Below, piece after piece: positions 2,730 through 50,826 of a stretch of 50,826 nucleotides of DNA. The stretch spans positions 1-50,826 of the forward strand of contig CAZXDO010000006.1 of assembly GCA_964639325.1 (NCBI GenBank), read 5' to 3'. The position numbers and the translations under genes are program-made. This DNA is from an uncultured Candidatus Saccharibacteria bacterium. GTDB lineage: Bacteria > Patescibacteriota > Minisyncoccia > UBA6257 > GWB1-50-10. A model generated the notes under the pieces. That model ran no database searches and was not told the origin of the DNA. It saw nothing but the letters and a program-made list of their open reading frames with translations. How positions within the stretch are numbered: the stretch's first letter is position 1; the number at the start of each line of letters is the position of its first letter.

Positions 2730-3305
2730 ATGAATAATAATAAAATTAAATTAATCATAGGAATTGGCTTGCTTTTAATAGCAACAACTTCTTTTGCTGT
2801 TTTTTTGGAATACTATGTTAGGGCGGAAGGAAGCAGTAAAGTTTCTCCTCCGGAGTTTTATATTGGTTCACCTCTTTCTGAAAAGCTTTTAATTGTTAAC
2901 GAAAAATCTCCTGATTGTGGAAGTTTTGGAATAGATGGAGATTTTAGAACTTTTAAGACAAGAGAGTTAAACGGAGTGAGTTTCAACTACCTTCCTAAAG
3001 TTAATTTTTATGTAAGGGCAAGTGGAGATAATACAGTTTCCACCTCAACCCCCTCAATGCGTCTTAGATTTGGTTATTACAAAAACAGTGATACTTCGGG
3101 GAGTAACCCCTTGTACTTAGCTGAAACTGAAATTAATCTCTCTAGTGACTTAACTGATTACTCTCTTCCTTCAATAAATGCCTCTACAAACCCAACTAAC
3201 ATTGGCCGGTTTTTCTATGAATTTAAAAAACTTTGCTCTGAATGTACTTATAAAATAAGTAGGTGCAACGGCAATTTTTATACCAAAGTAAAATTAACTG
3301 AATAA
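2730..3305 (+). CDS. secreted or membrane-anchored protein, unknown family
   Basis: 191-aa ORF with an N-terminal hydrophobic helix (LIIGIGLLLIATTSFAVFL). Its stop directly abuts the next start (3305/3306). Confidence 0.65.
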   Translation: MNNNKIKLIIGIGLLLIATTSFAVFLEYYVRAEGSSKVSPPEFYIGSPLSEKLLIVNEKSPDCGSFGIDGDFRTFKTRELNGVSFNYLPKVNFYVRASGDNTVSTSTPSMRLRFGYYKNSDTSGSNPLYLAETEINLSSDLTDYSLPSINASTNPTNIGRFFYEFKKLCSECTYKISRCNGNFYTKVKLTE

Positions 3306-4514
3306 ATGAAAAACAACTTTTACAAATTAGCAACATTAAGCTTAATACTTGTCCTTAGCGGGATTATTTTTACTGCTTTAGCTCACGCAGAAAGTGGTCT
3401 TTCTTTAGTTGTAAATAAAGAATGTAATATTAAATACAGCGGTAATAGCTGTACTGCTGATTTGGAAATGAAAAATTCTACAGGTAAGGTTTTAGAAGGT
3501 AAAGCATTTCTTTCTATTGACTACAAAGGAACTTGCGGAAACGGTCCTTTTGATGGTGATGGAATTACAGCTCAATTTTTAATAAATGAAAAAGTTTTTA
3601 ATTTTTCCAGCGAATGGAATAATGGAACCACCACAGCTTCAGGTTTTGAAATAAAAAAGAATACAACCTATCCCAAGCTTAAAATAAATACTGTTCCCAA
3701 CCTTTGTCCGGGTATATACACTTACACCTTAACAATAAAAGGAACCTCTGAGGGTGGTGAAGAATACATAACCGAACCTACTCCTGTAGGCGGTGGAGGA
3801 GGAGGCAGCGCATATCGTTCTCCTGACGAAGAAGAAATAATAAATATTGAAAACGTATCCATTTTAGAAGTAATCTCTCAAGAAACAGGTGAAAGGGAAG
3901 AGGTTTTAGGTTGGAGTACTACCGATGAAAACAATGAACCTTTTGCCACTAACGGGGCTGTAGTTTACGGAACCCAATCTGTTCCTGAAAACAACCTTGG
4001 TCCTGCTCCTAATTATGGCTATCAATTTAGACAAGAAAGTGAAGGAAAAAAAGATAATCACCTAGTTACCCTTAGCAATCTTCAACCCGGGACAACTTAT
4101 TATTACCGTATAGTTTCGTGGGCTTCTCCGGACACTGTTAGCAAGGAATACACTTTCACCGTTTCGGAGGAAGAAGAAGAAACAACTCCTACAGAAGGAA
4201 TAATTTCCGGTGAAGGCACCGTTCCCGAAACCGGTGAAGGAGAACCAACAGGAAGTGGCGGAGAAACAGAAGAAACAGGAGAAACCGGCGTAGGTGAATC
4301 TGAAATAGAGGATCTTGTCACTCAACTAACAGAAGAAGATAATTTTCCTAACGGTCTTCCTGCTGGTTTGTTAACTGCAGCTACTCTTCTTACTCTAGGT
4401 ACCGGGAAAAATATAATAGCCATGTTTATATTATTTATAATCCTTGTTATTTTATTCTTCCTTTATGATAAATATTTCAGGAGATCAAAAAAGGACAAAG
4501 TAAAAGGATTTTAA
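3306..4514 (+). CDS. cell-surface protein with signal peptide, FN3-like segment, acidic Glu/Thr/Gly linker and C-terminal membrane anchor
   Basis: 402-aa ORF. Signal peptide ends ...FTALAHA-ES. Contains a Gly6 run and the FN3-like motif LSNLQPGTTYYYRIVSWASPD. C-terminal helix IIAMFILFIILVILFFLY is followed by RRSKKDKVK. Confidence 0.7.
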   Translation: MKNNFYKLATLSLILVLSGIIFTALAHAESGLSLVVNKECNIKYSGNSCTADLEMKNSTGKVLEGKAFLSIDYKGTCGNGPFDGDGITAQFLINEKVFNFSSEWNNGTTTASGFEIKKNTTYPKLKINTVPNLCPGIYTYTLTIKGTSEGGEEYITEPTPVGGGGGGSAYRSPDEEEIINIENVSILEVISQETGEREEVLGWSTTDENNEPFATNGAVVYGTQSVPENNLGPAPNYGYQFRQESEGKKDNHLVTLSNLQPGTTYYYRIVSWASPDTVSKEYTFTVSEEEEETTPTEGIISGEGTVPETGEGEPTGSGGETEETGETGVGESEIEDLVTQLTEEDNFPNGLPAGLLTAATLLTLGTGKNIIAMFILFIILVILFFLYDKYFRRSKKDKVKGF

Positions 4515-5786: not shown

Positions 5787-7412
5787 ATGGATAAAGAACA
5801 CAAAATATTTTTAGAACCTGAAGAAAGCCTTGAAGAGGTAATAGATAAAATAAAAAAAGGAAAAGGAGATAAAATTGTCCTCCATATTCCAGAAGGATCT
5901 GTTTTAAGATCTTCAATAGACAATTTTTACGCCATTAAAGAAAAATCCTTTATTGAGGGTAAAGAAATTTTAATAGAATCAGTTGATCCCTATATTGAAG
6001 AAATTGCAGAAAGAGTTGGTCTTGATGCAATAAACCCTATATTTGGCAGGGAAGAACATTTTGTTTCAGATATTATTCCTAGAAGAAAAAAAGGTATCTT
6101 AACTTCAACCTCAGATTATAAGAAAGAAGGGGGGGTAGAAAAGGAAAAGGAAGACAAGGCTTATAATTTCTTTAACGCTCCTAAATCTAAAAAGATTCTA
6201 AAAGAAGAAAAAAGGAAAGAAAAAAAAGAAAGAAAAGCAATCCAGCCGGTAAACAGAAAAAAACGTTCTTTAGTTCTGGCCGGAACTTTTACTTTACTTA
6301 TACTTCTTGGATTTTTAGCTGTTAATGTTCTCCCTAAAGCCGATGTTGAGGTGACTCTAAAAAAATCACCTCTTTCTTTTGAAGAAAACATAATAGCCTC
6401 AGCTTCTGTTTATGAAATTGCTCTCGGCGAAGAAGAAATTATTATTCCCGGTGAATTATTAACCGCTGTTAAAAACATTGAAAAAAAGTTTCCGGCCACC
6501 GGAGAGGAAGAGATTCAAAAAAAAGCCACCGGGGAATTATATATATACAATGAGTATTCTTCTGCTCCCCAGACACTTGTGGATACTACTCGTTTTGTTT
6601 CTTCGGAAGGCAAAGTGTTTCGCCTTGACGAAAAGGTAACCGTTCCCGGAGCTGAAATAATCGGCGGGGAAATACTTCCTTCCAAGATAAAAGTTTCTGT
6701 TACAGCTGATAAAGCAGGGGAAGAATATAATATTAATTCAGACTCTGAAGAAAAATGGACCATTCCGGGCTTTAAAGAGGCCGGTCTTACCGATCGCTAC
6801 AATAAATTTTATGCTAAAACTGCTAGCTCTATGAGTGGAGGATATTCCGGAATATCCAAAGTTCCCACAGAAGAAGATTTGGAAAAAGCCGAGGCGGAAA
6901 TTAAAGAAATTCTTAAATCTTCTTTAGAAAGCCAGATAATGATAGCTTATTCTGATAACTTTAAATCACTTGAACCGGCTCGCCAGTTTGAAATTACTAA
7001 AATAGATTTTTCTGAAAGAGCCGATGATGAAGGCAATTTCAGCATCTTTGCTGAGGGCAAAACAGAAGCCTTTGTTTTTGAAGAGAAAACTTTAAAAGAA
7101 GCTTTAATTGAGAAAAATTCTTCTCCTCTTGATTTTGATTTTCAAATAATAGAAAGCAAGGTTAATTATTCCGAGGCTAAAACAGGAGAAAATGAGGAAT
7201 CGATATCTTTTAGTATTAATGGTTCTTTTGTCGTTGAACCTAAAATAAATAAAGACAACCTTAAGGCTCAACTTATCGGACAAACTGAAGAGATGGTAAA
7301 ACCAATACTTTTTTCAATTCCCAATTTGGAAAAAGCCCGAATTACTCTATGGCCTTTTTGGGTGAGTAAAGTTCCGGAAAATCCTAAAAAGGTAAATATA
7401 GAATTAAAGTAA
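5787..7412 (+). CDS. hypothetical membrane-anchored protein
   Basis: ORF track gives 5763..7412. I prefer the ATG at 5787 (MDKEHKIF...) because it avoids overlap with the upstream gene. K/E-rich region, then one TM helix (LVLAGTFTLLILLGFLAVNVL), then a large extracytoplasmic domain. Confidence 0.6.
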   Translation: MDKEHKIFLEPEESLEEVIDKIKKGKGDKIVLHIPEGSVLRSSIDNFYAIKEKSFIEGKEILIESVDPYIEEIAERVGLDAINPIFGREEHFVSDIIPRRKKGILTSTSDYKKEGGVEKEKEDKAYNFFNAPKSKKILKEEKRKEKKERKAIQPVNRKKRSLVLAGTFTLLILLGFLAVNVLPKADVEVTLKKSPLSFEENIIASASVYEIALGEEEIIIPGELLTAVKNIEKKFPATGEEEIQKKATGELYIYNEYSSAPQTLVDTTRFVSSEGKVFRLDEKVTVPGAEIIGGEILPSKIKVSVTADKAGEEYNINSDSEEKWTIPGFKEAGLTDRYNKFYAKTASSMSGGYSGISKVPTEEDLEKAEAEIKEILKSSLESQIMIAYSDNFKSLEPARQFEITKIDFSERADDEGNFSIFAEGKTEAFVFEEKTLKEALIEKNSSPLDFDFQIIESKVNYSEAKTGENEESISFSINGSFVVEPKINKDNLKAQLIGQTEEMVKPILFSIPNLEKARITLWPFWVSKVPENPKKVNIELK

Positions 7413-34836: not shown

Positions 34837-34904
34837 CCAGAAACCCTCGTTTTCTGGCGCTTCGCTGTTTTCCAACACGGGGAAAATACTCTTCCCCGAC
34901 CCCC
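34837..34904 (+). repeat. GC-rich two-hairpin repeat, element B
   Basis: H1 is CCAGAAA 34837-34843 / TTTCTGG 34851-34857. GCTTCGCT lies at 34859-34866. H2 is CGGGGAA 34878-34884 / TTCCCCG 34892-34898. CCCCGACCCC lies at 34894-34903. Same layout as 44659-44720. Confidence 0.75.
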
Positions 34905-35059
34905 TTTGTCGTTTAATAGCTTGGTGGTTATTTGCTAACTAATTCCTTTGTTATGTCTTCAGGAATAATGTTGTATTGTTAGAATTTCATATTAAACATT
35001 GTGGATAACTTATTTTTCTCCCATTAAGCTTGATCTAAGTTTTTTTCATTTTTGAAAAT

Positions 35060-44619: not shown

Positions 44620-44740
44620 TTTGTGATCCCAACCGGATATTTCACGTCGCTTCGCTCCCTGAAACCCCTCGGTTTCAGTGCTTCCGCCACGGGAAACTTC
44701 CGTTTCCCGACCCCTTCCCCGGTTCAAATCCTGGGTTCAA
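44620..44740 (+). repeat. GC-rich two-hairpin repeat, element A, bounded by a duplicated tRNA-Glu 3' end
   Basis: TTTGTGATCCCAACCGGAT 44620-44638 matches 44776-44794 at 18 of 19 nt. H1 is CTGAAACC 44659-44666 / GGTTTCAG 44671-44678. H2 is CGGGAAAC 44690-44697 / GTTTCCCG 44702-44709. Then CCCGACCCC and GTTCAAATCCTGGG 44722-44735. Confidence 0.8.
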
Positions 44741-44749
44741 AATAAAACA

Positions 44750-44767
44750 ACCCGCCTGACAGCGGGT
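44750..44767. terminator. bidirectional terminator hairpin between murF and tRNA-Glu
   Basis: ACCCGC 44750-44755 pairs with GCGGGT 44762-44767. A T-rich tract follows it on both strands. Confidence 0.55.
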
Positions 44768-44779
44768 AATTTTATTTTG

Positions 44780-50621: not shown

Positions 50622-50692
50622 TGCCGGGTCGTCTAACGGTAGGACGCCAGGTTTTGGTCCTGGTAACGAGGGTTCGATTCCTTCCCCGGCAG
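50622..50692 (+). tRNA. tRNA-Gln (anticodon TTG), no encoded CCA
   Basis: Acceptor TGCCGGG/CCCGGCA (U1-A72, typical of bacterial tRNA-Gln), D arm GTC-TAACGGTAG-GAC, anticodon arm CCAGG-TTTTGGT-CCTGG, T arm GAGGG-TTCGATT-CCTTC, discriminator G. Confidence 0.9.
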
Positions 50693-50826
50693 CACGAATG
50701 AAATGAGTGATGACGGGTATGGATTCAAACCATTTTGCCCCGTGTTGGAAAGTATCTAAACCCACGGGTTTTCAAAGTCAGGGGGTCGGGGCAAAATATG
50801 TGTTTATGTGAGATTCCTTCCCCGGC
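50693..50826 (+). repeat. GC-rich repeat, element C, ending in a second copy of the tRNA-Gln 3' end
   Basis: 11-bp stem 50732-50742 / 50787-50797. Contains CCCCGTGTTGGAA and GGGGGTCGGGG blocks. GATTCCTTCCCCGGC 50812-50826 repeats 50676-50690, and the window ends inside it. Confidence 0.8.

Follow-up and report, generated by a model that had tools for sequence, protein, structure and literature searches.

What lies behind the tRNA-Gln gene at the end of this contig, and why does the 3′ part of the gene occur there twice? The window, i.e. the whole stretch of 50,826 nucleotides analysed here, is an entire contig (C6) of a Candidatus Saccharibacteria genome, and its last base is the contig end. 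The first-pass annotation had reported that a 15-nt tail of tRNA-Gln is repeated 136 bp downstream, where the sequence stops. The 15-mer GATTCCTTCCCCGGC was indeed found, as an exact match, at positions 50676-50690 and 50812-50826, and the window holds no third match even with up to two mismatches (about 0.1 expected by chance). The first copy spans G57 of the T-loop, the 3′ strand of the T-stem and the 3′ strand of the acceptor stem of tRNA-Gln(UUG). The 121 nt between the two tails (50691-50811) contain no ORF. Together with the second tail, they are on balance probably one copy of a protein-less, hairpin-forming DNA insertion element of about 135 bp that lodges behind tRNA and tmRNA genes.

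The contig ends and a second copy of the element

The genome assembly comprises 677,627 bp in 53 contigs, with 98% completeness and 2.3% contamination, and contigs shorter than 3 kb are absent from it, so that tandem copies of the element may exist as well. Contig C37 carries tRNA-Gln(CUG) at 7140-7211, followed up to the contig end by the same 133 nt as in C6 (132 of 133 identical). The two copies differ once, in the left arm of the element, at window position 50727 (A in C6, G in C37). The final 95 nt of C6 and C37 also form the start of two other contigs, C4 and C18, which split after CCCGGCAGCA. Past this point, C4 continues as CGAATATTATTTT into a HAD-type gene and C18 as ATAATAAAT into a terminator. 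This is a two-in, two-out repeat node, in which two loci account for four broken contig ends (C6, C37, C4 and C18), and these contigs end where they do because the genome has two near-identical copies of the element. The suspicion of the first-pass annotation that further copies had caused the contig break was thus borne out.

The overlapping contigs also allow the sequence to be extended past 50826. The right copy of the tail runs on as AGCA... in both C4 and C18, and the direct repeat grows to 24 nt (GATTCCTTCCCCGGCAGCACGAAT) if C4 follows and to 19 nt if C18 follows. No tRNA gene comes after it. For every one of the four possible joins, ARAGORN called a single tRNA, so the second tail belongs to no complete tRNA gene, and the match both extends beyond 15 nt and recurs widely as part of the element. 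A tandem tRNA, a tRNA pseudogene, a permuted tRNA or a piece of tmRNA were rejected, since neither ARAGORN nor Rfam finds a second tRNA. The longer, 24-nt repeat gives a weak preference for the pairing of C6 with C4 and of C37 with C18. Synteny downstream of the element was not conserved in comparison with congeners.

An independent Logan assembly of SRR2986055 contains the same junction between tRNA-Gln(UUG) and the element, and its contig halts 20 nt into the element. This contig was the sole other assembly found to carry the flanking RRM gene, and an exact-pattern scan of metagenome contigs returned none from this species. A second repeat family was seen at contig ends: C20, C33, C46, C47, C48, C50, C14, C34, C53 and C49 begin or end in a REP-like hairpin, GTGGGGGTGTCGGGAACCCCCA(C), which often adjoins TTATCCACA, so that this family also fragments the assembly. 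The genome has 45 called tRNAs, among which tRNA-Met and tRNA-Phe were not found. One tRNA-His predicted by ARAGORN (C22:13279-13378) is 100 nt long and may contain an intron or insertion.

Anatomy of the element

The element has three parts: a degenerate inverted copy of the 3′ part of the tRNA (left arm), a conserved core consisting of P1, GTGNNGGAAAG, P2 and GGGGGTC, and a direct copy of the 3′ part of the tRNA (right arm). The order in the integrated state is tail, spacer, inverted tail, core and tail (Table 1). The reverse complement of the left arm, GGTTTGAATCCATACCCGTCATCAC, agrees with the tail in the working tRNA at 18 positions out of 25. The conserved unit has its two boundaries at one point of the T-loop, just past GGTTC, with GAACC on the left and GTGAG on the right; the GTGAG of the right junction stands where the T-loop has GTTCG. 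In five other copies with a short spacer (L036, L039, L046, L103 and L125), the ACGAAnnAGTGAG block likewise sits between the tRNA and the left arm. The element of C6 lies on the tRNA strand immediately past tRNA-Gln(UUG), as does that of C37 past tRNA-Gln(CUG).

The stem of 11 bp around a small hairpin, described in the first-pass annotation, corresponds to P1 and P2. Positions 50732-50742 (ATTTTGCCCCG) and 50787-50797 (CGGGGCAAAAT) form a perfect 11-bp stem. The hairpin inside it is P2, whose family consensus is TATTGAAAACC-GAG-GGTTTTCAAAG; in the window copy it is degraded to TATCTAAACC-CACG-GGTTTTCAAAG, with 6 of 9 consensus pairs kept. Given the degraded P2, the window copy may be inactive. 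The other core features, i.e. GGGGGTC, CCCCGTGNNGGAAAG and the covarying P1, are all present in the Gln copy along with this partly degraded P2 (GAAAACC-GAG-GGTTTTC in the family form). The left and right arms are able to pair, and a single strand is predicted to fold into a rod formed by the arm helix, P1 (with the same 11-bp stem) and the inner hairpins (-24.2 kcal/mol, z = -3.8). The predicted arm helix has 12-13 bp and a discriminator-like tail.

Table 1. Positions of the tRNA gene and of the parts of the element in the window.
Feature	Positions	Strand	Basis or remark
tRNA-Gln(UUG), intact, no encoded CCA	50622..50692/3	+	ARAGORN; Rfam tRNA, 59.2 bits at 50622-50692
X: T-loop (from G57), T-stem 3′ strand, acceptor 3′ strand, discriminator and 7 nt of trailer; copy within the working tRNA	50676..50699	+	
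Short spacer CACGAATGAAATGAG, without terminator	50693..50707	+	Homologous to the ACGAAnnAGTGAG block
Left arm: degenerate inverted copy of the tRNA-Gln 3′ part, terminating in the family-invariant GAACC	50707..50731	+	Invariant alignment columns
P1 5′ strand ATTTTGCCCC; an 11th pair is possible via G50742	50732..50741	+	
Conserved junction GTGTTGGAAAG (family consensus GTGNNGGAAAG)	50742..50752	+	Alignment A1, invariant columns
P2 hairpin region	50753..50778	+	Family alignment
Conserved junction CAGGGGGTC	50779..50787	+	
P1 3′ strand GGGGCAAAAT	50788..50797	+	
Conserved right junction ATGTGTTTATGTGAG	50798..50812	+	Family alignment
Right arm X″: direct copy of tRNA-Gln(UUG) from T-loop to acceptor 3′ strand, ended by the contig end	50812..50826	+	
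Match of covariance model R1 (permuted subtype); 3′ end cut by the contig end	50712..50826	+	106 bits

Two layouts of one core

In this genome the conserved blocks also occur behind tRNA-Glu(CUC) (44620-44778, minus strand), tRNA-Val(GAC) and tmRNA, and every time a downstream copy runs from the T-loop to the 3′ end. The architecture at tRNA-Glu, which the first-pass annotation had likened to that at tRNA-Gln, is the same in its main parts, both loci consisting of a tRNA, a core with common conserved blocks and the direct copy. Next to tRNA-Val, the blocks CCCCGTGTTGGAA and GGGGGTCGGGG reappear in inverted orientation at 34869-34882 and 34894-34905, as had also been noted. The standard layout reads left arm, GGAAGG-GGGTC, P1 hairpin, GTGNNGGAAAGCAG, P2, GGAGCGAAGCGACG and right arm. 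The layout of the Gln copies is permuted: left arm, GAACC, P1 5′ strand, GTGNNGGAAAG, P2, AAGTCA-GGGGGTC, P1 3′ strand, TGTGTTTATGTGAG and right arm. In the permuted layout the arms are attached through an opened P1, whereas in the standard layout of the tRNA-Glu type they are attached between P2 and GGGGGTC. The permuted block order, seen earlier as a reverse relation, arises because the arms join one core at different points. This attachment, the inverted tail in the left part and a UUG-type tail at the CUG locus (see below) are three features beyond those given in the first-pass annotation.

Both layouts can occur together. In a metagenome contig (L125; Ga0066639_10072629, reverse strand, about 100-480 of the segment), a permuted and a standard unit stand in tandem behind one tRNA-Arg(GCG); their spacers and left arms are identical, and the locus has three copies of the tRNA tail. 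Other copies are reduced. Core-deleted or truncated remnants were found behind tRNA-Leu(UAA), tRNA-Gly(GCC), tRNA-Leu(GAG) and tRNA-Ser(UGA). In contig C38, tRNA-Gly(GCC) and tRNA-Leu(UAA) (2868-3030 and 3270-3450) have tail duplications of 16 and 19 nt located 71 and 82 nt downstream, which enclose just a stump, namely an inverted T-loop with GGAAGG or a 28-nt GC block. These duplications look like core-deleted remnants of the same CPR family of tRNA-tail elements. A standard-layout element in C29 (3930-4080; L002, 230-380) has a tRNA-like right arm (TTCGAAT...CCCACCCCCTCCGCA), and no tRNA was detected within 270 nt upstream. In two permuted-layout copies of other genomes (L055, G109:C38; L056, G074:C34), the arms are not tRNA tails. 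One of them adjoins the end of a protein-coding gene, and the other is flanked by direct and inverted GGGATTTTTGTTT, which is terminator-like.

Distribution and recent gain

The permuted subtype turned up in a BLAST search of 60 relatives, in exact-pattern scans of species-representative genomes and of metagenome contigs, and with a covariance model, R1 (117 positions, 36 pairs), which was run on 96 genomes of the family. R1 was positive in 31 of the 96 genomes (E ≤ 0.001). Homologous units of like anatomy lie inside long contigs of many other genomes. The subtype targets tRNA-Ala, tRNA-Arg (three anticodons), tRNA-Asn, tRNA-Cys, tRNA-Gln (both), tRNA-Glu (both), tRNA-Lys, tRNA-Pro (two), tRNA-Ser (four), tRNA-Thr and tRNA-Tyr, about 20 different tRNAs in the relatives, in addition to tmRNA-like tails and two non-tRNA sites. 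As far as searched, the element family is confined to Patescibacteria/CPR. Full-text searches of the literature returned no description of it. The locus belongs to a family of gene-less hairpin insertion elements that spans the CPR, here in the permuted layout and with two copies in the genome; by this search, the family has no published description.

R1 had no match in three congeners. At the tRNA-Gln(UUG) site of one congener (G002) and the tRNA-Gln(CUG) site of another (G003), the tRNA is directly followed by a terminator and no element is present. Because R1 is blank in the three congeners and these two orthologous sites are empty, the element appears to have been gained in this species after its split from them.

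Arms of the element and transfer between isoacceptor genes

In relatives, the left arm tracks the local tRNA closely. For example, the tRNA-Glu(UUC) of L040 and L052 has an unusual T-loop, GGTCCGATTCC, which the left arm repeats in inverted and the right arm in direct orientation. In a Campbellbacteria MAG, the element stands behind both tRNA-Gln genes (L038 and L039), and the arms of each copy are adapted to its own tRNA. In C37 the left arm agrees with the CUG tRNA at 19 of 25 positions, including 11 of 11 in the T-loop region. The right arm at this locus, GATTCCTTC..., is the tail of the UUG tRNA, while the CUG tRNA retains its own T-stem (CCAGG/CCTGG). Therefore, the repeat at the CUG locus is no local target duplication. 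We infer that a crossover in the common 10-mer CCCGGCAGCA carried the unit CGAATGAAATG...GATTCCTTC-CCCGGCAGCA as a block from the UUG locus to a position behind the CUG tRNA. Such a block transfer would mean that the arms travel with the element and that arm homology chooses the target.

Related patterns were seen in the Campbellbacteria MAG described above and in a Colwellbacteria MAG, in which two tRNA-Glu genes (L045 and L110) have the tail, spacer, left arm, core and right arm all in common. Here the crossover seems to have taken place further 5′, so that the tRNA's 3′ end was replaced. That the crossover points vary suggests that exchange between tRNA genes of similar sequence depends on homology. 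Another pattern is seen within one genome among sibling copies that stand behind tRNAs unrelated to each other: their cores are 95-98% identical, their spacers are unrelated and their arms locus-specific. Either the core of about 90 nt may have moved recently, with the arms rebuilt at each site, or old insertions may have been homogenised by gene conversion.

Relation to tRNA-targeting integrative elements

A direct repeat of the tRNA 3′ part that starts in the T-loop, with an intact tRNA gene at one junction, is classical for tyrosine-integrase elements. An island or prophage of this kind in its complete form was rejected for the present locus, where the direct tail repeat and the intact tRNA are found but the repeats enclose only the 121 ORF-free nucleotides. 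The locus could instead be the CIME-like scar of an integrase-driven island or prophage with a lost interior, in which attL and attR would bracket a remnant. The intact tRNA at the left junction, the T-loop start of the repeat, and the presence of two tyrosine and five large serine recombinase genes in the genome are in line with such a scar. However, what remains between the repeats is a conserved 90-nt core, which shows the identity between loci of one genome given above and is recognisable across genera, and none of more than 60 copies contains cargo or an integrase. Moreover, the inverted, target-matched arm is foreign to attL and attR, and the right arm at the CUG locus differs from that tRNA's own tail. 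We thus consider a scar of this origin unlikely.

The nearest published relatives of the element are tRNA-targeting integrative elements and folded-DNA recombination sites, and the element lacks what defines them, as it carries neither integrase nor cargo and has no known cognate enzyme. Like the tyrosine-integrase elements of tRNA and tmRNA genes (T-loop sublocation) and the CIMEs, it sits at a tRNA gene's 3′ end, repeats the stretch from the T-loop to that end in direct orientation, leaves a functional tRNA at the proximal junction and also targets tmRNA. Unlike them, it is only about 135 bp long with no integrase or cargo in the copies seen, possesses a conserved folded core and an extra inverted arm matched to the target, and has crossover points that vary between the T-loop and the acceptor strand. 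With the attP(+) of CTX phage (XerCD) and the attC of integrons (IntI), it shares two inverted target-like segments about 90-110 nt apart, a hairpin stem that imitates the double-stranded target, palindromic stems that vary in sequence while pairing is kept, and the order X, spacer, inverted X, loop and X. The target, however, is the T-arm and 3′ end of a tRNA instead of dif or attI, there is no phage genome or cassette, and no IntI was found, so that the likeness is a functional analogy. REP/BIME sequences with RAYT and the palindromic MITEs derived from IS200/IS605 (PATEs) are similar in being short, gene-less, extragenic hairpin DNA at the 3′ ends of transcription units, with the enzyme, if any, acting in trans. 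As in REP/RAYT systems, the genome has one RAYT-like Y1 HUH gene; unlike the CPR element, REPs lack copies of the neighbouring gene end.

Candidate mobilising enzymes

An all-against-all comparison of the ORFs flanking 41 loci revealed no common recombinase and only housekeeping synteny. In the genome, one of the two tyrosine recombinase genes is split: at C46:6833-8635, the tyrosine recombinase domain lies in two pieces about 1.3 kb apart within one open frame of 733 aa, and the split may be due to an intein or another insertion in an Xer-like gene. The five large serine recombinase genes (about 520-560 aa; C19:11664, C1:4635, C5:11158, C27:6332 and C44:3085) are mostly near contig ends. They are unusually many for 677 kb, which suggests several integrated elements.

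The RAYT-like Y1 HUH gene (C33:2549-3262; L130) encodes 237 aa and is located between a comM/Mg-chelatase-like gene and yraN, just past dprA. This neighbourhood is related to competence and single-stranded DNA, and C33 starts with a REP-like hairpin, GTGGGGGTGTCGGGAACCCCCAC. Across the 96 genomes, however, the gene occurred in 15 of the 31 that have the element and in 30 of the 65 that do not, and it was rejected as the mobiliser for want of any association. Contig C53 encodes a single-domain GIY-YIG protein of 101 aa. The Ssn GIY-YIG nucleases (about 95 aa) recognise abundant small hairpin repeats (NTS/SRM) as single-stranded DNA, and the SRM motif HGTCWY... needs W and then Y after GTC (PMC11893778). 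Read by eye, the CPR core has GG after GTC, where W and Y are required. No GC-rich hairpin repeat was seen in the 0.8 kb around the GIY-YIG gene.

Reverse transcriptase (RVT_1), TnpB, IS110 transposase and Cas1 were all absent from the genome. A retroelement primed on tRNA was rejected, since besides the lack of a reverse transcriptase the tail copies run into the genomic trailer and not into CCA, which argues against a retro-origin. Systems of the TnpB/omega-RNA and IS110 bridge-RNA types were rejected for lack of the genes. A casposon-type insertion, with a 14-15 bp duplication at tRNA 3′ ends, was rejected too, since it would require Cas1 and since the tRNA of the CUG locus is not the one duplicated in the right arm there. 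A MITE of a known IS family was also rejected: the arms copy the local tRNA and not an IS end, the repeats are variable (15-34 nt), neither TnpB nor IS110 transposase is encoded, and the lone Y1 gene is unassociated.

DNA or RNA

The named structure has 78% of its cells paired, compared with 71% in shuffles. None of the 500 shuffles or of the slid controls came up to it, and both sides change in 22 of its 37 pairs. P1 occurs in 23 distinct sequences among 32 distinct copies, all of them complementary (e.g. TTTTGCCCC, CTTTTATCCCC, CATCCATCCCC, CCCCGCGCACCCC and GTACGCCCCC). The pairs of P1 and P2 taken together are Watson-Crick in 609 cases, G:T in one and A:C in two. A selected RNA helix normally gathers G:U pairs, on one strand only. 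In most copies, an intrinsic terminator lies between the tRNA and the element, and another follows the element. Because of the near-exclusive Watson-Crick covariation and the terminators between tRNA and element, the element would appear to act as DNA and not as RNA. The symmetric, wobble-free pattern points to a DNA palindrome, which could be a single-stranded hairpin or a cruciform, or could reflect copy-correction within the palindrome.

The unpaired junctions are strongly conserved, which would equally fit an RNA or a site for protein binding. The element could be imagined as a structured non-coding RNA gene, whose arms make up an acceptor/T minihelix like that of a tRNA, closing with the 3′ strand of the tRNA itself, with the core in place of the T-loop; the product might be a substrate of RNase P or Z, or might bind a tRNA-handling protein. 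Covarying helices, very conserved single-stranded junctions and an arm helix with a discriminator-like tail would all be expected of such a gene, and the window copy lies on the tRNA strand with no terminator in between. Against this, the single G:T among about 610 pairs does not exceed A:C, unlike in RNA families, and most copies are cut off from the tRNA by a terminator. Rfam 15 has no family that matches the element even at E ≤ 10, nor ten related loci at E ≤ 5. The presence of the element is patchy, with none found in the congeners, core-deleted and truncated remnants exist, and the arms track the neighbouring gene, with no fixed partner. An RNA gene is thus quite unlikely.

An assembly artefact, in which a chimeric or collapsed contig end mimics a duplication, might be suggested by the position at a contig end of a fragmented MAG with some contamination, but is very improbable, as the contig contains the 136-nt unit in full, the junction recurs in the Logan assembly and homologous units of the same anatomy are embedded in long contigs of many other genomes.

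A possible mechanism of insertion

For the hairpin DNA insertion element favoured here, the integrated order of the parts matches what is predicted for single-strand integration of a folded hairpin, which would be the most likely mechanism, if with low confidence. By analogy, a folded single-stranded recombination site would fit the predicted fold, the covariation restricted to Watson-Crick pairs and the order of parts, and two tyrosine recombinase genes are present in the genome. The handling of the folded arms might resemble that of CTX-phage attP, which is folded as a single strand, or that of attC in integrons. In the least supported step, the first insertion would probably be carried out by a host or phage recombinase or nuclease that acts in trans on the folded arms. 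The rewriting of both arms at a new tRNA is a feature that simple circle integration does not explain.

A further-reaching version of this mechanism, which we regard as rather unlikely, is a self-addressed element. Its inverted and direct arms would fold into a hairpin mimicking the double-stranded tail of a chosen tRNA gene, insertion of the 90-nt core there would be left to a recombinase or single-strand nuclease of the host, and the arms would be rewritten from each new target, amounting to DNA-guided, retargetable integration. The permuted and standard layouts, which L125 shows in tandem behind its tRNA-Arg, would then be two openings of one circular intermediate.

Implications for CPR genomes

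Two near-identical units of 135 bp behind isoacceptor tRNAs suffice to break up CPR assemblies made from short reads, and tandem copies are hidden by them; in this MAG, a two-copy element accounts for four contig breaks. A gene-free element recognisable across many CPR genera has as its target the most highly conserved stretch of tRNA and tmRNA genes, which it does not destroy, and its arms match the target in both orientations. Block transfer between isoacceptor genes can replace the 3′ ends of tRNAs, as in the Colwellbacteria tRNA-Glu pair, which gives tRNA genes a way to evolve. Should the arms direct integration, organisms with minimal genomes would have in this element a compact insertion system that is programmable and addressed through homology.
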